A stretch of DNA of 64,000 nucleotides, taken from assembly GCA_007376385.1 (NCBI GenBank), contig VMGC01000001.1:32001-96000 (forward strand), in the 5' to 3' direction. This DNA comes from Parcubacteria group bacterium Gr01-1014_8. Its GTDB lineage: Bacteria > Patescibacteriota > Minisyncoccia > Phycocordibacterales > UBA2100. A model generated the notes under the pieces. That model made no database searches. It was not told the origin of the DNA and saw only the letters and a program-made list of their open reading frames with translations. How positions within the stretch are numbered: the first letter of the stretch is position 1; each line of letters begins with the position of its first letter. This document shows positions 16,684-39,589 of this stretch, in pieces. The position numbers and the translations under genes are program-made.

Positions 16684-17604
16684 TTATCCCCCGAAAAGTA
16701 TGGTATCCGATATTGTGCGTGTTTTTTGCTTCAAAAACTCAGCTACAGCTGTGAAGAGAATTGCCTGCACGTCCTCTGCACCTGCAGTAAGAGCGGACAA
16801 TTCTTTGTCAACGACCCCGTCTATTTCTGCTGCAAGAGAGCGCGCTGAAAAGTATTTCCGTATGAAAAAACGGTACCACGGAAGACGTACTCGAACTCTC
16901 TCCTCTGATGTCGCGGCTGCACCCACCACCTCTACCCGCACTGGGAACGAGAACGGGATAATAGCAAACAACGCGCCGCGACTGCGATATGTGATCTCAA
17001 ATCGGGATGCGGAGAGAGCGGCTTTCTCAAGCTGCGCGTCGTCGCCCGCAAGTTCTGCTGCAATGAGCGCATAGTACTGGCCAGTTGATAACTTGCCGCC
17101 ATCAATTTTTTCCTTCGCGCGGCCCCTCAATCCTTTCCAAAATTTCAAGATATCGCGTATGTCAGCATTGCCTTGTATCGCCGCCCGGACTTTTTTTCCG
17201 TCGATGGTTACGCTAAAACCGCCTATCGTTCCTCCGCCAATTTTATACTCGTCGCCTGAATCAGTGACCGTGATCGCCCCTTGCTCTACGAGCGTGTTCA
17301 CTACATCCCCTTCCGTCTCGACGATCGGGCCTGGCAGAGGAGACTCCGGGTTACTTTGTGAGTTTTCTTCAGTTTGCTCTTTCTGGTCGATCGGTGTCTC
17401 AGGCAGAGGTTCTTCGTCCGGATTTTGGTTCAGATTCTGTGTTGCACTCCCGCTTCCGGCGGGAACTTCGCTGGTAAGGTCGAGGATTTCTCCTTTTTTC
17501 AAAAAATATTGGTCATTGAACTGGTCCGCAGAAGCGACGCCTGCATTGAATATCAAAAAAAGAAGTAAAAAACAAAAAAATACCCGCATAAAATGCTGTA
17601 GCAT
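16684..17604 (-). CDS. secreted hypothetical protein (last gene of the pilus operon)
   Basis: Start taken at 'MLQHFMRVFFCFLLLFLIFNAGVASA', a signal peptide. An acidic, Pro-rich linker follows. I recognise no known domain. Confidence 0.5.
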   Translation of the reverse strand: MLQHFMRVFFCFLLLFLIFNAGVASADQFNDQYFLKKGEILDLTSEVPAGSGSATQNLNQNPDEEPLPETPIDQKEQTEENSQSNPESPLPGPIVETEGDVVNTLVEQGAITVTDSGDEYKIGGGTIGGFSVTIDGKKVRAAIQGNADIRDILKFWKGLRGRAKEKIDGGKLSTGQYYALIAAELAGDDAQLEKAALSASRFEITYRSRGALFAIIPFSFPVRVEVVGAAATSEERVRVRLPWYRFFIRKYFSARSLAAEIDGVVDKELSALTAGAEDVQAILFTAVAEFLKQKTRTISDTILFGG

Positions 17605-17615
17605 GCGCGAAAATC

Positions 17616-19112
17616 CTATTGCTCTCTCCATAATACAAATTTGTAGTCGGCCGATGCAGATGGAGTAAAAGGCGGTGGTGCGAATGCGAGTATTCGATCG
17701 TAGTTGTCTATACGAAGGTTGTACCCGGAACAATACACGCCCGGGGAACCACAGAGCCATTTGGTGCCGACGCGTTTGTTGGAGATGACCGAGCCATTTG
17801 TCGTGAGTTGTGATTGCTGTACATATCCATCGTATGCCGAAGGTACTTGGTTCGAGCCCGACGTCGTGTAGTAGTTGCGGCCAAATAGCCCCCCTTGCGC
17901 GACAAAAATGCCACGGATCGTCATCTGGTCCGGCGAAACAAGCGGCACGAGAATAGAATCCTCAGCAATGACCGTGAGCCCGGTCGATCCATCTGCTGTC
18001 GCATAATTAACGTTGTTATTCAGAATAACACTCGGCGCGTACGCACCAGTATCTGCCGTAACAATTGTTATTTTTCCTGACACCGTTCCTTCTATCCATG
18101 TTTTTGCGCTGACAAAAATAACCGCGCAATCCGACGGCGGCGTAAATGTGCCGAGTGAAACTTGTGTGGAAATGATGTCGTAATTCATATACCACGTCGG
18201 CGAGTGCCCTCCGTTATACCCCCACACACCTGAAGTACCAGTAACGCGATAGATAGTGACAGTTCCGTTTGAATTGAACACAAGCCTGTATCCGCGCTGA
18301 TCAGAAGCAGCCACTGATGAATAGGTTCCTCCTTGTTGCACATTATCAACTCGCGTGGTTGTGCCGCTGAGCAGTATTCCATCGAGTTGCGCGTAGCCGC
18401 GAAGCGCGCTGAAGTTTGAGCCGATGCCTTCAAAACTTACCTGGGGAACGGGATAACTCCAGAGCGGACTTCCGGTCCCCGCGCCAAATACGCCCGCCGC
18501 ATTATTATTTGTCGGGGAACATCCGAAACTTGCACCACATATCCATGTCGAAACCGAACTTGTGACATCGGAATTATTTGTTCCGTCCATTCTCACGCCG
18601 CCGTTCGAATGATACGGACCCGTGATATTTCTGTCTGATCCCGCCCAGACATTTTGATTCACAATGTGTGAATACTCCGCGACTGAAGGTCGCATATAAC
18701 GCGCAATAAGTGTGCGTTTAAAGACCGGGTTTTGGTCAGCCCTGCCTTCCGATGCGATGTTTGCGTACTGCGGTACGCCGCAGGCAGTATTCAACGTTGT
18801 CGTAACTGCCGCTTCTCCTACCCGCCCACCCTCTGGATCTTCGACGACATACGTAACTGGCGTTTCAAGGCCGGCGCCGGATAGCATGACATTTGGCGTG
18901 TGCACAAGAAACCATCGATAATACTCAAGTCCTGCTTCTGCTATTTGAATTGCCTGTTCCCGTGCGAACAATGCGCGTCCGTACTTGGCCTGCATGAAGC
19001 TGTAGCTCGTTATTGTTCCCAAAATAAGCGCAAAAATACCCATGTATGCAACAACTAGAATGATGGTCACTCCTCGCGACGCACTCCCTTCGTGTTTCTT
19101 TTTTCTGTTCAT
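17616..19112 (-). CDS. type IV pilus minor pilin / assembly protein, PilX-like N-terminal domain with a large C-terminal extracellular region
   Basis: N-terminus 'SRGVTIILVVAYMGIFALILGTI' is a pilin-like TM helix without E5. 'REQAIQIAEAGLEYYRWFL' follows and resembles the PilX_N motif. The remaining roughly 430 aa are predicted extracellular. Confidence 0.6.
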   Translation of the reverse strand: MNRKKKHEGSASRGVTIILVVAYMGIFALILGTITSYSFMQAKYGRALFAREQAIQIAEAGLEYYRWFLVHTPNVMLSGAGLETPVTYVVEDPEGGRVGEAAVTTTLNTACGVPQYANIASEGRADQNPVFKRTLIARYMRPSVAEYSHIVNQNVWAGSDRNITGPYHSNGGVRMDGTNNSDVTSSVSTWICGASFGCSPTNNNAAGVFGAGTGSPLWSYPVPQVSFEGIGSNFSALRGYAQLDGILLSGTTTRVDNVQQGGTYSSVAASDQRGYRLVFNSNGTVTIYRVTGTSGVWGYNGGHSPTWYMNYDIISTQVSLGTFTPPSDCAVIFVSAKTWIEGTVSGKITIVTADTGAYAPSVILNNNVNYATADGSTGLTVIAEDSILVPLVSPDQMTIRGIFVAQGGLFGRNYYTTSGSNQVPSAYDGYVQQSQLTTNGSVISNKRVGTKWLCGSPGVYCSGYNLRIDNYDRILAFAPPPFTPSASADYKFVLWREQ

Positions 19113-19115
19113 AGT

Positions 19116-19700
19116 CTATTTCAAGTTCCTAAGCGCCGCGGTCGAGCGAAGTGTTAATTGGTTCGGCAACCGATTTGGATCAACGTTCACAATAACGTTC
19201 ATGGTAATGAAACGCACATACGCTATCTGAGCAAAATTTGTTATCTCTGCACCGTTCATATCGTAGTATTGGAATGTCGTTGTCGCTTGCTCGATGTTAC
19301 GAACTGTCTCAGAAATTACCGATGTCGTTTGGGCTGCACCGTACACAGGAGGATCACCCGTGGGGTCTGTTACGTCACGAAGCAATGAAATGCCTTGCAC
19401 ATAGTATCGCACTCTCTCAATAAGCGGATCTGAATCGATGTCAGCGTAAAACGTAACCTCCTGGGGGCCAACCGCGGCAACAGGATATGCGCCATTTGAC
19501 GCATAGGATATCTCTCGCATCGTTTTCACCATCTCTTCGATGCCGCGCTGCGCTGCATTTACAGCGCTTGCTTGTTCTATAACGTATGTATTCGTGCGAT
19601 AGAAGTAAAGTACCGATGAAACAATGGCGAGCATCGCGAACGTAAAGACAGTAATGGATACCAACACTTCAATAAATGTGATGCCGCGTGAGTAGTTCAT
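19116..19700 (-). CDS. type IV pilin-like protein (prepilin N-terminal cleavage/methylation motif)
   Basis: 'MNYSRG|ITFIEVLVSITVFTFAMLAIV' is a class III signal peptide with a Gly cleavage site and Glu at +5. Length 194 aa. Confidence 0.75.
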   Translation of the reverse strand: MNYSRGITFIEVLVSITVFTFAMLAIVSSVLYFYRTNTYVIEQASAVNAAQRGIEEMVKTMREISYASNGAYPVAAVGPQEVTFYADIDSDPLIERVRYYVQGISLLRDVTDPTGDPPVYGAAQTTSVISETVRNIEQATTTFQYYDMNGAEITNFAQIAYVRFITMNVIVNVDPNRLPNQLTLRSTAALRNLK

Positions 19701-19701
19701 A

Positions 19702-21906
19702 CTAATTTAATACGGGAGACAGCCGCGAGGTGCCTGAAACGTCGACGTCGGTTGCTGTGTACGGCTGGAATCCGGCAGCTGTTATGTCTATTGAATATGG
19801 GTTACCGCCGCCCACCGAACCACTCGAAAGTTCGATGAAAAAGGCCTGCCCGCAGGAGTCGGTGGTCATCGTGACGTTGTATCCGAGAGAGCGATATAAG
19901 CGCACTGTCGCGTTTGCTATGAGTCCGCCGTTGCCACGAACATCGACGAGCAGCGAGTTTGTCGTGTGCGGCGCAAGAATAAGTTTCGTTGTTGCATATT
20001 CATTCGGTGCAAGGCTCTCCGGCTGCGGCGCACACGAGGAAGCGATGTCATAACCCGTCGAAGCATCCACCGTTGTCGTGTACGTGTCCCATTCGAGATT
20101 GCCGATACCGACGCCTGCCGTCGGACCCGTAGAAAGGGTTGTCGTCGAATACTTATAGAATGTGCCTCCTGGGCCATTCCCTATTGATTTATTACCTTGA
20201 AGACCAAATGTAATGTTTGGAAGAGGAAGAGGTCCCACGTCATGTGTGACTTCCCACGAAAGAACTTCCGGCGTCTCGCTTTCGTTTGCCGTGCCAAGTG
20301 ACGCATGTAAAGAAACACCTGGGTACGTTGTCGTTGAAATACCCGAAATGTCTACCGGCGATAGGCTGAATCCGGAACTATTACCCGGCAGTTCGGAGTC
20401 CGGAATGAGCGAGCTGCCGTCACTGGAGTACAGACGATAGGCAATGTTTGTCTGCGCCGGTCTCGTATCGACAAAGCGGAGTTGCTTCCACCGCACCAGA
20501 TATTGCGGTGCGATGGCTATCGAGCGCGCTTCGCCCGGAGTTGAATATGGTCCGGGCGCACCGACCAATCGCAAAAGTCCTACAGCAACTTCTGTGTTCG
20601 TGGTGGTAGCAATTTGAGAAGCATCCGCAAACGTATCCGTCGTTGTTGATGTCTTTATTTGCTCGAATGTTTGTACATTTTTTATAGAAACCAGATCGAT
20701 AGAGAATGGAAACGAGGTCGTTTGGTTAAGAGCGACTGTCAGATGCCCTGGCGTCGGATTGGTAATTTCTGCCGTTGCATCGTATGTCTGCGAAGTTGAG
20801 TAACCACTTTTTGTGACCACAATCTTGTAGCCAGCGCTGGCTGGAGCTCCGATGATCGTAACAAGTCCATCATTATCGGAAAAAAGAAGCATGTTTACGA
20901 CCGGATTGGTCGTGGCATTGATGACGGTAACCTGTGCATTCGCGACTGGCGCAGATGCTGCGTCCAAGATTGAAAGAGCGAGAGTCCCGCCCGGTACTGC
21001 TTGTTCAATGCCTACCGGCGAGACTCGTGTCGTCAACGCGACTTTTCGCAACCCGCCATTGTGCGCAGACCATGAAACCTCTGTCTTAACCACTTTAAAG
21101 TCCGCTGGATTCGCATTCGTGTCGGCGGCGCCTGTACCGTCCTTCGGATCATCTCCATACAAAATTATGGTACGGCGAATATATGAGATGCCATTCAATG
21201 TTGCTGTCTCCGTCGCCACGATCGCGCCAGATGGAATTCCCCCAACCGTGCCAACAGAATCGTAGGGTAAGCTGCGAATGAATTCTTGCCGTTCGTTCGC
21301 AAGAGCTATCGCCCCCGCACGGGCCTTGTTATTCGTGACAACATCGACTGAAAGCTGAAACGCACCGGAGATACCGACAAATACGAGCATGAGAAGCGCC
21401 GTGCCAACGATGGTATCGATGAGCGTCACGCCGCGCGATTGGCGGTGTTCACGTCGTCTTGAATACATTTCTGGAATGGTTCTTGTTATCACATGTTTTA
21501 ACGAGTCAGTCGTCGGCATAAATACGCCTTTCGGAAGATATATCCGCCATTGTGAATACCCGGGAACCTCGTTCCATCCATGCATCGCAGGAATCTTTTC
21601 GGCCCCCCTGTGCTCTTCGTCCATATGTAAATATAGCAGCCCCGGTTTCTTCGGTGTGGCAGACTCCAAAAGACGATTGGTTTTTTCCATCATCAGAGGA
21701 AACATGCCCCTTCTCTGGAACTCCGGATAAACCATAGTTTGCTCGGAATAGTAATAGCCATCCAAAGAATCAAACTCGCGATATGCAACAGGTATATTGT
21801 CAGATTTTGTGCGCCAGTCGATTCGCCAACCATCTTTTGTATTGCTGATGATTTCTTTCAACTCTGGCAAAGGCTCTTTGCCCGGATGAATCGTCTCGTC
21901 GCTCAT
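19702..21906 (-). CDS. pilin-like giant protein: N-terminal ~160 aa GNAT-like cytoplasmic domain + internal prepilin motif + ~570 aa extracellular region with carboxypeptidase-regulatory-like beta-sandwich repeats
   Basis: Its ATG lies 2 nt after the pilC stop. Residues 1-160 carry 'VYPEFQRRGMFPLMMEKTNRLL', which resembles GNAT motif A (Q/R-x-x-G-x-G/A). The internal 'YSRRREHRQSRG|VTLIDTIVGTALLMLVFVGI' is prepilin-like with Asp at +5. 'VTVINATTNP...GYKIVVTKSGYSTSQTY' and 'ATVRLYRSLGYNVTMTTDSCG' look like CarboxypepD_reg folds. Confidence 0.6.
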   Translation of the reverse strand: MSDETIHPGKEPLPELKEIISNTKDGWRIDWRTKSDNIPVAYREFDSLDGYYYSEQTMVYPEFQRRGMFPLMMEKTNRLLESATPKKPGLLYLHMDEEHRGAEKIPAMHGWNEVPGYSQWRIYLPKGVFMPTTDSLKHVITRTIPEMYSRRREHRQSRGVTLIDTIVGTALLMLVFVGISGAFQLSVDVVTNNKARAGAIALANERQEFIRSLPYDSVGTVGGIPSGAIVATETATLNGISYIRRTIILYGDDPKDGTGAADTNANPADFKVVKTEVSWSAHNGGLRKVALTTRVSPVGIEQAVPGGTLALSILDAASAPVANAQVTVINATTNPVVNMLLFSDNDGLVTIIGAPASAGYKIVVTKSGYSTSQTYDATAEITNPTPGHLTVALNQTTSFPFSIDLVSIKNVQTFEQIKTSTTTDTFADASQIATTTNTEVAVGLLRLVGAPGPYSTPGEARSIAIAPQYLVRWKQLRFVDTRPAQTNIAYRLYSSDGSSLIPDSELPGNSSGFSLSPVDISGISTTTYPGVSLHASLGTANESETPEVLSWEVTHDVGPLPLPNITFGLQGNKSIGNGPGGTFYKYSTTTLSTGPTAGVGIGNLEWDTYTTTVDASTGYDIASSCAPQPESLAPNEYATTKLILAPHTTNSLLVDVRGNGGLIANATVRLYRSLGYNVTMTTDSCGQAFFIELSSGSVGGGNPYSIDITAAGFQPYTATDVDVSGTSRLSPVLN

Positions 21907-21908
21907 AT

Positions 21909-23126
21909 TTAGATGACTTCCGACAGTTGGTAGATAGGAGAGATCATCGAGACCGCGAAAAATCCGACTGCGCCGCCGATGAAAATCATCAGGAACGGCT
22001 CGATGATCGTCGACATATCTTTCGTCTTTCTATCGACCTCATCCTCATAATAGATGGCGAGACGCTTTAACATTTCCGTCAGTTGTCCTGTCTCTTCCCC
22101 GACCGACATCATCTCCCCCACAAATGCCGGATACATGTCCTCGCGCCGTGTAAATTCTGCGGAAAGGGGCTCTCCTTTTCCAACGGCCGCCTTTGCCTTC
22201 TGAACTATGTCCTTGAAGTAACCGTTCTGGATAACGTCACTCACGATATCGAGCGACGTTAAGAGGTCAACACCAGACGAGAGGAGCGATGCAAGCGTCC
22301 GCGAGGTACGTGCGGCATTCACTTCTCGAACTAATACCCCAATAAGGGGTACTTTCAAGAAAAACCAATCAGCAAAACGTTTTCCAACAACTGTATGAAC
22401 TGCAAAATAAATCGTGCCGACGAACAATACAACAAGCGCAAGCGCAAGCACCGTGTATTCCACAAGAAAATCACTGATAGCAATTATTGTCCTCGTCGAG
22501 GCCGGCAGATCTGCGCCCATTTCGGCGAATGTCGAGGCCAGCGTCGGTACGACTTTTATCATCATCAAGACGCCAATACCGACAATCGCAACAAGAACGA
22601 TCACTGGATAAATAAGCGCCCCGCGTATCTTCTTTTTGAGGTTGTACATCCTCTCCATCTGGTCGGCGATGACGGTGAGCGATTGAGGCAAGTCCCCCCC
22701 TTCTTCGCCAGCGCGAACCATCGCAATGAAAAGCTTCGAAAATATATACGGGAATTTTGCAAGCGCGGCATGCATCGCGTCCCCTCGCCGCACTTCGCTC
22801 GAGAGCTGCGAAATGACATTCGAGAGTTTTGGATTCCTCGTTTGGCGCTCCAGTACTGAAAGCGCTCGTGAGAGCGCAAGGCCTGCCGTGAGCATAGCGC
22901 CTAAATTTCTCGCAAACAGAATGCGTTCGTATTCCGTGACCGTAGAGATCTTCGCATTCCAGTAGGCGATACTGAGCCACTGATTCGCCCTGTCTTCATC
23001 CACAGAAATGATGCGCCCGCCTTCACGGCGCACGACGCTGTACAATTCGAAACGATCGCGCGCTTCTGCGACGCCCTTATAGACTTCGCCGTCCGGCTTT
23101 TCAGCAGTGTACGTAAACCGAGACAT
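21909..23126 (-). CDS. pilC: type IV pilus assembly platform protein PilC (GspF family)
   Basis: 405 aa with two T2SSF repeats and three TM segments. Sequence includes '...GEPLSAEFTRREDMYPAFVGEMMSVGEETGQLTEML'. Confidence 0.9.
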   Translation of the reverse strand: MSRFTYTAEKPDGEVYKGVAEARDRFELYSVVRREGGRIISVDEDRANQWLSIAYWNAKISTVTEYERILFARNLGAMLTAGLALSRALSVLERQTRNPKLSNVISQLSSEVRRGDAMHAALAKFPYIFSKLFIAMVRAGEEGGDLPQSLTVIADQMERMYNLKKKIRGALIYPVIVLVAIVGIGVLMMIKVVPTLASTFAEMGADLPASTRTIIAISDFLVEYTVLALALVVLFVGTIYFAVHTVVGKRFADWFFLKVPLIGVLVREVNAARTSRTLASLLSSGVDLLTSLDIVSDVIQNGYFKDIVQKAKAAVGKGEPLSAEFTRREDMYPAFVGEMMSVGEETGQLTEMLKRLAIYYEDEVDRKTKDMSTIIEPFLMIFIGGAVGFFAVSMISPIYQLSEVI

Positions 23127-23199
23127 TCATTCGATTATACCGTCTAAGCAACAGAAAGAAGCGCGTGCTGTACACAATCGCTCACTGTCACAACATGGA

Positions 23200-24939
23200 T
23201 CACTCTGAGATCACGCGCAACACTTCTTCGATGGTAGTGATTCCCTGTACTGCTTTAAAAATACCGTCTTCCGCCATGGAGAGCATGCCTTCACTCCGTG
23301 CCTGTTTTTCAATGGCATCTCCTGTTGCATTTGCCATGACAAGGTCCTTGATGGTCAACGTAACTGGCAAGACTTCATAGATACCGATGCGCCCGTTGAA
23401 TCCTTGCGGGGTTTCAGTTGATCCTTTTGGTTTATAGAACGGCACTTTGTTCCACGTTGCCTCCTTTGCAACAACTTTTTCTTCTTTCAGGGCCTTGAGA
23501 ACCGCCCCCCCGTCAACAAATTTTTCTAATTGGTTCTGTTCATCGCGAGAAAGCTCGTATGGCTCATGTTGCGCCGTCAATTTTCGGACAAGCCGCTGCC
23601 CGATCACCACGCGCAGTGTCGAGACAAGCAGGAATGGCTCCACACCCATGTCGAGGAGCCTCGCTACTGCGCCAGCAGCAGAATTCGTGTGGAGCGTTGA
23701 GAGCACCAAGTGACCCGTAAGAGCAGCGTTTATGGCAAGCGACGCTGTTTCTTTATCTCGAATTTCACCCACCATGATAATGTCCGGGTCCTGACGCACC
23801 AGCGAGCGAAGCCCGGTCGCAAACGTGAATCCTATCTCTGGTCTCACCTGTGTTTGATTCACACGCGCCATCTGATACTCGATAGGATCTTCGACAGTGG
23901 AGATATTTACATCCGGCGTGTTGATGATATCGAGGAGCGTATAGAGTGTTGTCGATTTTCCGGCACCAGTAGGACCAGTCGTGAGTATCATGCCTGTCGT
24001 TTTTCGCATCGCATCATGCATCCGTTCAAGCCCTGTACCGTGAAATCCGATACTTTCCAACGTAAAGCCTGAGATAGAATCGCGAAGAAGTCGCATAACT
24101 ATCTTTTCACCGTAGTACGTGGGGAGGACTGAGACACGAAATGATATCTTCTCTCCCCCAGCTTCTGCTCCGAAGCGCCCATCTTGCGGCAAGCGATGTT
24201 CATCAAGCCGCATATTTGCGAGAACTTTGATGCGTGCAGTGATAGCCGCTGCGGCATGTTTTGGCAATTCCATCGCGTCGTGCAAGATCCCATCGATACG
24301 ATAACGAATAAGAAGCGTATTTTCCAATGGTTCAATATGGATATCTGACGCATTCTGTGCCCCCGCATGGCGTAATAACGTATCCACAATGCGAACGGCT
24401 GAAACGCCCTCGGCCATCTGCCTTAGATCAGCCTCTCCGACATCGCCTTTCTCTTTTTCGAGCGCTACAGTCTCTCTCTTAATAACGTCGCCAAGCGTAT
24501 CCTTGAGACCCTTCTGATACTGTTTGAGCGAGGATTTGACCGAAGCTGCATCCGTAAGACGAGGCAATATTTTTAAACGCGTCTTTTTCTTAATGAAGTC
24601 GATGGCCGCGAGATCGTCAGTGTCGAGCATCGCAACTTCGAGCTCGTCGCCTTTGTGACTGAAAGAGATGATGTTGTTGCGGCGTGCAACAGGCTCAGGG
24701 ATAAGTGCAAGCGTCTCGTACGGTATATTCGTGCCGACCAGCGAGACAAACGGAATACCGAGGATATATGCATAGGTACGGCGAAGCTCATCCTCGCCAA
24801 TAGAGCCCTTCCCTACAAGAATATCGCCGATCGTTTTGCCGCTTTCTTTCGCTTCTAACTCTGCCACGTCAAAATCCTTTTGTGAGACCAGGTTTGCGTC
24901 AGCCAAAAACGATTTCAAGTGTGTATCAGAAATGTACAT
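23200..24939 (-). CDS. pilB: type IV pilus assembly ATPase PilB (GspE family)
   Basis: Walker A 'TGPTGAGKSTTLY', an Asp box, His box 'GHLVLSTLHTNSAAGAVARL' and an N-terminal GspE_N domain. Length 579 aa. Confidence 0.95.
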   Translation of the reverse strand: MYISDTHLKSFLADANLVSQKDFDVAELEAKESGKTIGDILVGKGSIGEDELRRTYAYILGIPFVSLVGTNIPYETLALIPEPVARRNNIISFSHKGDELEVAMLDTDDLAAIDFIKKKTRLKILPRLTDAASVKSSLKQYQKGLKDTLGDVIKRETVALEKEKGDVGEADLRQMAEGVSAVRIVDTLLRHAGAQNASDIHIEPLENTLLIRYRIDGILHDAMELPKHAAAAITARIKVLANMRLDEHRLPQDGRFGAEAGGEKISFRVSVLPTYYGEKIVMRLLRDSISGFTLESIGFHGTGLERMHDAMRKTTGMILTTGPTGAGKSTTLYTLLDIINTPDVNISTVEDPIEYQMARVNQTQVRPEIGFTFATGLRSLVRQDPDIIMVGEIRDKETASLAINAALTGHLVLSTLHTNSAAGAVARLLDMGVEPFLLVSTLRVVIGQRLVRKLTAQHEPYELSRDEQNQLEKFVDGGAVLKALKEEKVVAKEATWNKVPFYKPKGSTETPQGFNGRIGIYEVLPVTLTIKDLVMANATGDAIEKQARSEGMLSMAEDGIFKAVQGITTIEEVLRVISE

Positions 24940-38119: not shown

Positions 38120-39589
38120 ATGAATAAGGTTCTTCTTTCCGTACCGCAGGAAGTGACTAACCTCCATTCACGTCTCAAAGGAGCTGGTTTTGAGGCCTAT
38201 TTGGTCGGAGGGTGCGTTCGTGACGTTATAGCAGGTAGAATCCCCAAAGATTGGGATATTACAACCAATGCAAAGCCGCAGGAGATCCAAGCGCTTTTTG
38301 AAGAAACATTTTACGAGAACGAATACGGAACTGTCGGTGTCGTTACTGGATCTGATGATCCCAGACTAAAAGTAGTCGAGATTACGCCGTATCGTATAGA
38401 GGGAAAATACTCCAACGCACGCCACCCGGATGAAGTAAAATTCAGCGATACCCTTGAAGATGACCTGAAAAGACGTGATTTCACCATCAATGCTATCGCA
38501 TACGAACCGGACACGGGGGAATTGGTCGACCTGCATGGGGGAAAGAGCGATCTTGAGCGGAAGATCATTGCAACCGTGGGAAATTCGGATGAGCGATTCG
38601 CCGAAGATGCCCTGCGCATGCTTCGCGCGATCCGACTTTCCGCAGAATTGGATTTTGCTATCGATACAAAGACAGCAAGCGGTATCGCGAACAACGCGTC
38701 ACATTTGGCAAAGATATCGAGGGAACGTGTCAGAGATGAGTTGATAAAGATCCTGGAGAGCAACCGACCCATGCAAGCGCTTTATGTGGCTCAAAAATTG
38801 GGTATTTTGAAATACATCATTCCAGAGCTAGAAGAGGGAATTGGCGCTTCTCAAAACCAAGCCCACTCGTACGATGTGTTTGAGCATTCATTGCGGACTC
38901 TACAGCACGCTGCTGACAAGAAATGGCCGCTCGATGTGCGAGTTGGAGCACTCTTGCACGACATAGGTAAACCTGCGACGCGGCAATGGTCTGATGAGAA
39001 AAAAGATTGGACATTTTACGGACACGACGTCGTCGGAGCTAGGATAGCAAAAAGAATTCTCATTGACCTTCGATTTCCGAAAGAACTTATTGAGCGCGTA
39101 CATACCCTTGTGCGTTGGCATATGTTCTTTTCAGACCCAGATAAGATAACACTCTCTGCAGTCAGACGTGTCATAAATAGGGTAGGTACTGATAACATCA
39201 TGGACCTTCTTAATCTGCGCGTCTGCGACCGCATAGGGACTGGCAGACCGAAAGAGCATCCATTTCGCCTGCGCAAATACATGTCGATGGTAGATGAAGC
39301 AATGCGCGATCCTGTATCGGTCTCTATGCTGAAGATCGACGGCGAAGGAATCATTACATTAGGAGAAAGACCTGGACCCCGCATTGGTTGGATTCTGCAT
39401 GCACTTCTTGAAGAGGTACTGGACGACCCCACAAAAAATACCCGCGAATATCTTGAAACACGCTCAAAAGAGATGATGAAATTACCTGAACCTCAATTGC
39501 AAGAGATCGGCGAAAAGGGAAAGGAACGAAAGACGGAAGAAGACGAAGCCGCTATTCAAAAACTAAGAGAAAAACACCACGTACACTAG
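38120..39589 (+). CDS. cca: CCA-adding tRNA nucleotidyltransferase with HD domain
   Basis: 'AYLVGGCVRDVIAG' and 'RRDFTINAIA' (pol-beta nucleotidyltransferase head), plus HD motif 'ALLHDIGK'. Length 489 aa. Confidence 0.85.
   Translation: MNKVLLSVPQEVTNLHSRLKGAGFEAYLVGGCVRDVIAGRIPKDWDITTNAKPQEIQALFEETFYENEYGTVGVVTGSDDPRLKVVEITPYRIEGKYSNARHPDEVKFSDTLEDDLKRRDFTINAIAYEPDTGELVDLHGGKSDLERKIIATVGNSDERFAEDALRMLRAIRLSAELDFAIDTKTASGIANNASHLAKISRERVRDELIKILESNRPMQALYVAQKLGILKYIIPELEEGIGASQNQAHSYDVFEHSLRTLQHAADKKWPLDVRVGALLHDIGKPATRQWSDEKKDWTFYGHDVVGARIAKRILIDLRFPKELIERVHTLVRWHMFFSDPDKITLSAVRRVINRVGTDNIMDLLNLRVCDRIGTGRPKEHPFRLRKYMSMVDEAMRDPVSVSMLKIDGEGIITLGERPGPRIGWILHALLEEVLDDPTKNTREYLETRSKEMMKLPEPQLQEIGEKGKERKTEEDEAAIQKLREKHHVH

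Follow-up and report, generated by a model that had tools for sequence, protein, structure and literature searches.

The third gene of a pilus operon in the groundwater Parcubacteria group bacterium Gr01-1014_8 is a single open reading frame (ORF) of 734 amino acids (aa) that joins a predicted GNAT-fold domain, a class III signal peptide and a 575-aa modular pilin in one frame (19702..21906, minus strand). Positions refer to the window, by which we mean the whole 64-kb stretch of DNA analysed here, and the operon lies on its minus strand. The encoded protein is 100% identical to hypothetical protein G01um10148_49 of the same bacterium. On balance, the evidence points to a recent, lineage-restricted stop-loss fusion, a tolerated accident as opposed to a purpose-built coupling of pilin processing to enzyme release, and we hold this reading with modest confidence. 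In this model, a small GNAT-fold gene between pilC and the large pilin gene would have lost its own stop codon and would now read in frame into the pilin. Ribosomes that end pilC would restart at an ATG 2 nt further on and synthesize a GNAT-prepilin polypeptide. Its single hydrophobic helix would insert with the N-terminus inside, the GNAT domain would stay in the cytoplasm, and prepilin peptidase would cut after Gly-1 on the cytoplasmic face, separating the two parts. As cleavage would undo the fusion, the fusion would be tolerated. An internal start codon, M147, located in an unstructured, A-rich stretch, probably also gives rise to an ordinary prepilin with a 13-aa leader.

The ORF begins immediately behind pilC. 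The pilC stop codon (TAA, 21911-21909) is followed by 2 nt (AT) and then by the ATG of the ORF (21906-21904), as an earlier note on this DNA, made from the letters alone, had reported. From there, 159 codons lead up to a cleavage-type motif (...MYSRRREHRQSRG/VTLIDTIVGTALLMLVFVGI..., the slash marking the cut between G159 and V160), in agreement with the earlier count of about 160 open codons before RREHRQSRG/VTLIDTIVGTALLMLVFVGI. The motif is composed of a hydrophilic, Arg-rich leader, MYSRRREHRQSRG (aa 147-159, 21430..21468, minus strand), in which Gly-1 is the last residue, and a hydrophobic alpha1N segment, VTLIDTIVGTALLMLVFVGISGAFQL (aa 160-185, 21352..21429, minus strand), with Asp at +5. 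The predicted prepilin-peptidase cut lies between 21430 and 21429. This arrangement is like that of type IV prepilins with a class III signal, in which a positively charged hydrophilic stretch extends to the Gly, about 22 hydrophobic residues come next and position +5 is acidic, and the organization of the operon, pilB-pilC-pilin with further pilin-like genes, is shared as well. It differs from them in having Val at +1 and Asp instead of the usual Glu at +5, and above all in the length of the leader. Type IV prepilin leaders are 6-26 aa long and about 30 aa at most (PMC4471445), compared to 159 aa here, 146 of which make up a predicted folded GNAT domain.

Using a regular expression for the class III motif on a six-frame translation of the 64 kb, we obtained matches only in the 734-aa ORF and in the next pilin gene, and the motif was found in 17/17 orthologues examined. 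Neither aa 147-202 nor aa 147-319 matched PF07963 (N_methyl), even with the threshold relaxed to E<=10, and a PDB sequence search and an NCBIfam scan of the pilin N-terminal region returned nothing useful. As PF07963 does not match the 734-aa protein, the pilin assignment is based on the motif, on its operon context and on the pattern among orthologues.

The first codon of the leader is an in-frame ATG (M147, 21466..21468, minus strand) equivalent to the start of pilin orthologues (for example MYSPASKG/ATLIDT in P0015). Initiation at M147 would give a 13-aa leader, compared to 159 aa before the cut in the full ORF, and a mature pilin of 575 aa. The earlier note had recognized this internal Met as an alternative start, although its sizes for the leader (12 aa) and the mature part (570 aa) were slightly too small. 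Its proposal of a CarboxypepD_reg-like beta-sandwich in the mature part holds, with PF13620 matching aa 312-385 (20752..20973, minus strand; E=1.2e-10, 42 bits against a cut-off of 32.3). In carrying CarboxypepD_reg/SpaA-like beta-sandwich modules, the 575-aa mature pilin is similar to modular pilins such as PilB and PilC of Streptococcus sanguinis. The known grafted domains of modular pilins are C-terminal to the pilin module and outside the cell. In contrast, the extra module described here would be N-terminal to the cut, cytoplasmic and removed by processing. The grafted domains described for modular pilins are adhesive and displayed on the pilus (PMC10191384). Among the large-pilin relatives, P0151, P0175 and P0190 (767-953 aa) have extra domains inserted mid-protein while retaining the N-terminal pilin part and a C-terminal module of about 110 aa, and that module is also present on many short proteins. 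These insertions suggest that the pilin family is a scaffold for grafted modules.

Modular pilins and the GNAT superfamily are both known kinds of protein, and what is unusual in the 734-aa ORF is the folded domain ahead of the class III site. Our survey of the literature on prepilin leaders found no description of a folded domain N-terminal to a class III cleavage site. A folded, domain-sized leader before a cleavage site and a short or distinct core is found in RiPP (ribosomally made, post-translationally modified peptide) precursors with nitrile-hydratase-like leader peptides (PMC12537861). This is an analogy only, without homology, as the protease, the pathway and the cellular location all differ.

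The N-terminal extension (aa 1-146, 21469..21906, minus strand) is coding sequence and not a chance open frame. Its frame-specific codon score is 0.112, compared to 0.19+-0.06 for the real genes of the window and a maximum of 0.04 for off-frame windows, and its GC content at third codon positions is that of the genome. Together with homologues detected by tblastn, this agrees with the view of the earlier note that the open stretch is not fortuitous. An AlphaFold model of the extension, based on a 37-sequence alignment, reached a pLDDT of 89 and a pTM of 0.80. Comparing this model to the PDB with Foldseek, we obtained 71 matches at E<=1e-3, and the best 50 were all GNATs (TM about 0.45-0.53), including NatD, RimI, SpeG, AAC(2') and Naa80. 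An earlier model built from three sequences had pointed toward the same fold. Although the extension alone matched no Pfam or NCBIfam model at threshold, 28/37 aligned family members match Pfam GNAT models (PF00583, PF13508 and PF13673). The model and the family homology together indicate that the extension has a GNAT fold, and the GNAT-like character that the earlier note had proposed is borne out at the level of predicted fold and family.

The extension is a divergent member of the superfamily. The model opens with four strands, goes on with helix-strand-helix and two more strands, and closes with a long C-terminal helix (aa 133-157), which continues through the leader. In the canonical GNAT fold, alpha1-alpha2 lie between the first strands. 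The model lacks helices at this position, and its four strands are consecutive. The string VYPEFQRRGMFPLMMEKTNRLL, which had been likened to the acetyl-CoA-binding motif A, is present at aa 59-80, but its acetyl-CoA loop is degenerate, reading Q64-R-R-G-M-F69 (21700..21717, minus strand) where the family alignment and its table of conserved columns give R-G-x-G-x-G. The loop departs from the motif A pattern Q/R-x-x-G-x-G/A at the last position, which is Phe, and a Q-x-x-G remnant is left in common with GNATs such as RimI, NatD and SpeG. The extension has Pro at alignment column 187, where 79% of the family share a Tyr, and 13/25 family-conserved positions are retained, within a family range of 12-25. 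Judged from these residues, the catalytic competence of the domain is doubtful.

Outside the operon, relatives of the extension are small proteins. An exhaustive HMMER profile search identified about 35 homologues, all standalone proteins of 105-182 aa, whereas word-indexed searches with the extension gave almost no matches. The HMMER profile included the pilin C-terminus, and matches to the pilin C-terminal module were separated by the matched profile position. In tblastn, the standalone homologues match only 21448-21825 of the window (P0131, E=6e-15), and the tail at the C-terminus of standalone mini-GNATs can in addition be aligned with the first residues of the leader (P0142 to 21454, P0153 to 21448). 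Where neighborhoods of mini-GNAT family members could be read, they contained grpE, or a PHA_gran_rgn gene and a ZIP-like transporter, and no pilus genes. We rejected the idea of a pilus-dedicated mini-GNAT family on the basis of these grpE- and PHA_gran_rgn-adjoining members. In two contigs, a gene for a 97-aa PHA_gran_rgn protein (PF09650) is positioned directly 5' of the mini-GNAT gene (L012:775-1068 with 1115-1540, and L026:141-434 with 436-921). By eye, the 97-aa proteins closely resemble each other, and the contigs may come from related genomes; the pairing may represent a conserved two-gene module.

The pilin part has a much wider distribution than the fusion. A full-length search returned 610 homologues, of which 120 were listed, and our orthologue counts refer to these 120. 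In 118/120, only about 75-83% of the query is covered, corresponding to the pilin part, and there is no GNAT extension. Nearly all of the listed orthologues are 560-640 aa long, most of them 560-600 aa, with typical leaders of 8-12 aa (MKPPGGRG, MIRDRERG, MYSPASKG). A few gene calls extend 30-60 aa further upstream, and the five of these that we examined show no GNAT similarity. Conservation of the extension among orthologues, which the earlier note had proposed to check, is found in one case, P0002, where an extension about 29% identical is in frame; the 118 orthologues without it go against general conservation.

Four states of the pilC-pilin junction were observed among the relatives. The first is the in-frame fusion, shared by P0002, a 748-aa protein of a Kaiserbacteria metagenome-assembled genome (MAG; L001/L002) that is encoded in the same operon and starts 3 nt past pilC. 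The P0002 extension has a canonical motif (VDPEYREKGIGSKF) and exceeds the Pfam cut-offs for GNAT models (PF00583, 28.1 bits against 20.7; PF13508, 27.8 against 27). Between the window and L001, neighboring genes are 69-89% identical and the pilin is 72% identical, compared to 29% for the extension (BLASTP E=1e-11). In the second state, represented by P0003 (L003/L004), a separate gene, read in a different frame, encodes a 155-aa GNAT-like protein and ends in a TGA that has a 17-nt overlap with the pilin start (ATGATCATGAACCGTGA). The earlier note had named a different frame upstream of the pilin start as an observation against its reading, and this sister genome has that arrangement. The GNAT-like protein of L003 falls in a different branch of the family, closest to P0176 and P0179. 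The third state is an unrelated insert: in P0004 and P0005 (L009 and L010) the pilC-pilin spacer carries a 111-aa ORF on the opposite strand. This antisense ORF (MIETPDYLRNDEAARGAKK...; L009:3610-3945 and L010:1-207, both minus strand) is conserved and has no precomputed Pfam family; it is unrelated to the GNAT-like gene, and we rejected the possibility that the spacer holds a degraded copy of the L003 gene. In the fourth state, found in the outgroups L005 and L006, there is no insert, and a 51-nt spacer contains a -10 box at a distance of 6-7 nt from the ATG of the pilin.

The five genomes with an insert group as a single clade of the pilin tree, at 69-82% identity, in which the fused genes are sister to each other. 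In metagenomes, a scan with the pilin yielded neither a relative above 59% identity nor further fusions, and a scan of genome contigs returned the L001 contig only. The junction between pilC and the pilin gene looks like a hot spot for small cargo genes. Given that members of the GNAT family occur outside pilus operons and that the junction exists in four states, the GNAT module is an accessory gene that came to lie at a variable site within the operon, where the in-frame state is rare. The processing-coupled enzyme or signalling module envisaged by the earlier note is not indicated by this pattern of a separate gene in L003/L004, family members outside pilus operons and 118/120 orthologues without the extension.

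Two separate genes could be joined falsely by a frameshift in sequencing or assembly, or by a stop codon that was lost, and some suspicion is warranted in that the genome is metagenome-assembled and one relative does have two separate genes. The ENA (MEGAHIT) and Logan assemblies containing the identical protein are base-identical to the window over 5.2 kb. The agreement of the NCBI, ENA and Logan assemblies shows that the in-frame state is not an assembly artefact. The L001-type fusion genome, an independent genome with 72% pilin identity, is likewise in frame in two assemblies. With three identical assemblies and an independent in-frame genome, we rejected the artefact, which we consider exceedingly improbable.

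In the window, a Shine-Dalgarno (SD)-like tetramer precedes 2/32 of the genes that start with ATG (6%), compared to 15% of internal ATGs. In 10/32 genes, a TAnnnT box is located 4-10 nt 5' of the ATG, compared to a background of 4% at internal ATGs. At pilC this takes the form TATAAT-N7-ATG (23127-23150), and further -10 boxes lie 5' of the genes starting at 38120, 42854 and 34559. The start of 7/32 genes lies at the stop of the gene before them, and 15/32 have none of these signals. These patterns suggest that leaderless mRNAs are widespread and that remaining genes are coupled to upstream stops. The ATG at 21906 is a start of the stop-coupled type. Since the extension is conserved and contains no stop, its translation must give a fusion polypeptide.

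The same analysis bears on M147. The earlier note had argued against an internal start from the missing strong ribosome-binding site. That argument is void in a window where so few genes have an SD-like tetramer, and the mRNA at M147 is unusually open. The 50 nt around M147 have a minimum free energy (MFE) of -1.8 kcal/mol, compared to a mean of -5.8 for annotated starts and -9.9 kcal/mol for 173 internal ATGs, 1.2% of which are as open. M147 is among the least structured 1.1% of the 7.3-kb operon, along with true gene starts. Looking on the minus strand within the extension, we found no sigma-70-like promoter 5' of M147. A GATAAC noticed by eye 5' of M147 was rejected as a promoter box, as it is without the conserved final T. 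The junction in L001 looks different, with no ATG, only a TTG at -8, and an MFE of -15.4 kcal/mol, which makes it more structured than 92% of positions. In the window, it is likely that both the fusion and the 13-aa-leader prepilin started at M147 are made; in L001, pilin probably comes from the fusion alone.

The openness of M147 raises the alternative that pilin is made from this start only, and that the 146 upstream codons are a decaying relic whose read-through product is minor, non-functional, degraded or harmless. In line with such decay, the extension has diverged far faster than all neighboring genes (29% against 69-89% identity), it sits at the bottom of the family range in conserved positions, and it is without a Pfam match of its own. 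M147 carries the signature of an initiation region, and the junction is a spot for variable cargo. However, a neutral relic would not stay open over 146 + 166 codons in two lineages. Gene-like codon usage and a fold predicted with high confidence also speak against a relic, and the upstream ATG is so ideally placed for restart after pilC that the fusion would be hard to avoid; in L001, moreover, there is no signature of internal initiation. We consider exclusive use of M147 possible but somewhat unlikely.

At the other extreme, pilin could be produced only by way of the 734-aa precursor, with cleavage freeing a functional GNAT as a processing-coupled module. The coupling of the start to the pilC stop fits this strict version, as does the lack of a stop codon, by which ribosomes translating the conserved domain continue into the pilin. 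The frame has remained open in two genomes though the extensions are only 29% identical, the fusion seems to be the only route to pilin at the strongly structured, ATG-less L001 junction, and N-terminal acetyltransferases (NatD, RimI, Naa80) are among the best fold matches. Set against this, an ATG is retained in the window at the position where orthologues start, within the most open 1% of the mRNA, and the sister genome has both parts as separate genes in different frames. The fusion was seen in two genomes only, the GNAT extension is missing from 118/120 listed orthologues, and family members reside in unrelated gene neighborhoods. Motif A is degenerate and the family Tyr is lost. Taken together, we find an obligate precursor of this kind quite unlikely.

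A stop-loss fusion that is tolerated is compatible with what is known of prepilin processing. Prepilins insert via the signal recognition particle (SRP)/Sec route with the leader in the cytoplasm, and on the cytoplasmic face the peptidase cleaves behind the critical Gly, with no other pilus component needed (PMC4471445, PMC10191384). In the 734-aa ORF, a linker that joins the GNAT domain to the Gly preserves the original leader length of about 13 aa. A GNAT domain followed by an Arg-rich linker and one hydrophobic helix is, by its predicted topology, compatible with prepilin insertion, and prepilin peptidase could plausibly cleave the fusion.

Several observations weigh against a tolerated stop-loss accident. 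We infer the fusion protein, its cleavage and the use of M147 all from sequence. A folded 146-aa domain is far larger than described leaders of 6-26 aa, about 30 at most (PMC4471445), and the modelled helix that continues through the leader (aa 133-157) might hinder access to the cut site. That the frame is open in two lineages despite about 70% divergence of the extension argues for selection on read-through. L001 is without a credible internal start, and the fusion there may be an obligate precursor. The separate gene of L003 belongs to a different family branch, which hints at repeated recruitment to the site, something pure accident would leave unexplained. Alternatively, the GNAT-prepilin could be a working precursor in this small Kaiserbacteria-like lineage, obligate in L001, from which the peptidase would free one folded cytoplasmic domain of 146-166 aa at the membrane per pilin. 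Whether released or tethered, the GNAT might have a local action, for example by acetylating the new pilin N-terminus in place of the N-methylation that prepilin peptidases often carry out. We think such a working precursor unlikely.

If the fusion is made and cleaved, the peptidase would process a whole-domain leader five to ten times any described length. This would widen the substrate rules of the prepilin peptidase family and would suggest a route to deliver or release cytoplasmic cargo through pilin processing. The locus also provides a natural series, from no insert to a separate overlapping gene, a fusion with an internal start and a fusion without one. This series could serve the study of how fusions are tolerated when their parts are split at a protease site that was already there. 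Should the internal start alone be used, the case would reduce to an ordinary annotation issue, an over-long ORF produced by stop loss in an upstream accessory gene.

The first gene of the operon encodes a pilB-type assembly ATPase (579 aa, 23200..24939, minus strand), whose orthologues in L001 and L005 carry the MshEN and T2SSE Pfam families, and it is followed by the pilC-type platform protein (405 aa, 21909..23126, minus strand; PF00482 T2SSF, E=3.7e-61). Downstream of the 734-aa ORF is a minor pilin (194 aa, 19116..19700, minus strand; MNYSRG/ITFIEV), which matches PF07963 N_methyl above cut-off and has weak matches to GspI, ComGE and PilV; its ATG is placed 1 nt past the TAG stop of the 734-aa ORF. 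Next comes a pilin-like protein (498 aa, 17616..19112, minus strand; MNRKKKHEGSASRG/VTIIL...) with a weak PilX_N match. The gene for this protein is syntenic in L001, L003, L005 and L006, and tpiA and pgk lie downstream of it. The order of pilB, pilC, large pilin and minor pilins is kept in the loci of 6/6 distinct relatives (L001, L003, L005, L006, L009 and L010). The peptidase A24 signature (GxGDxK) was not found within the 64-kb window, to which this search was confined.

A 358-aa ORF (16684-17760, minus strand) is positioned 3' of the 498-aa pilin-like gene, with a listed overlap of 145 nt between the two. Its equivalent in L001 is 295 aa long, and the true start of the ORF is probably further downstream, near MERAIGFSRMLQHF..., where a signal-peptide-like hydrophobic stretch follows. 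Additional genes are found elsewhere around the operon in the relatives. In L001, an extra 105-aa ORF with no Pfam family lies between pilB and pilC (L001:4410-4727), where the window has a spacer of only 73 nt. In L003, a RelB/YafQ toxin-antitoxin pair, absent from this position in the window, is encoded between the pilus operon and tpiA (L003:6877-7697).

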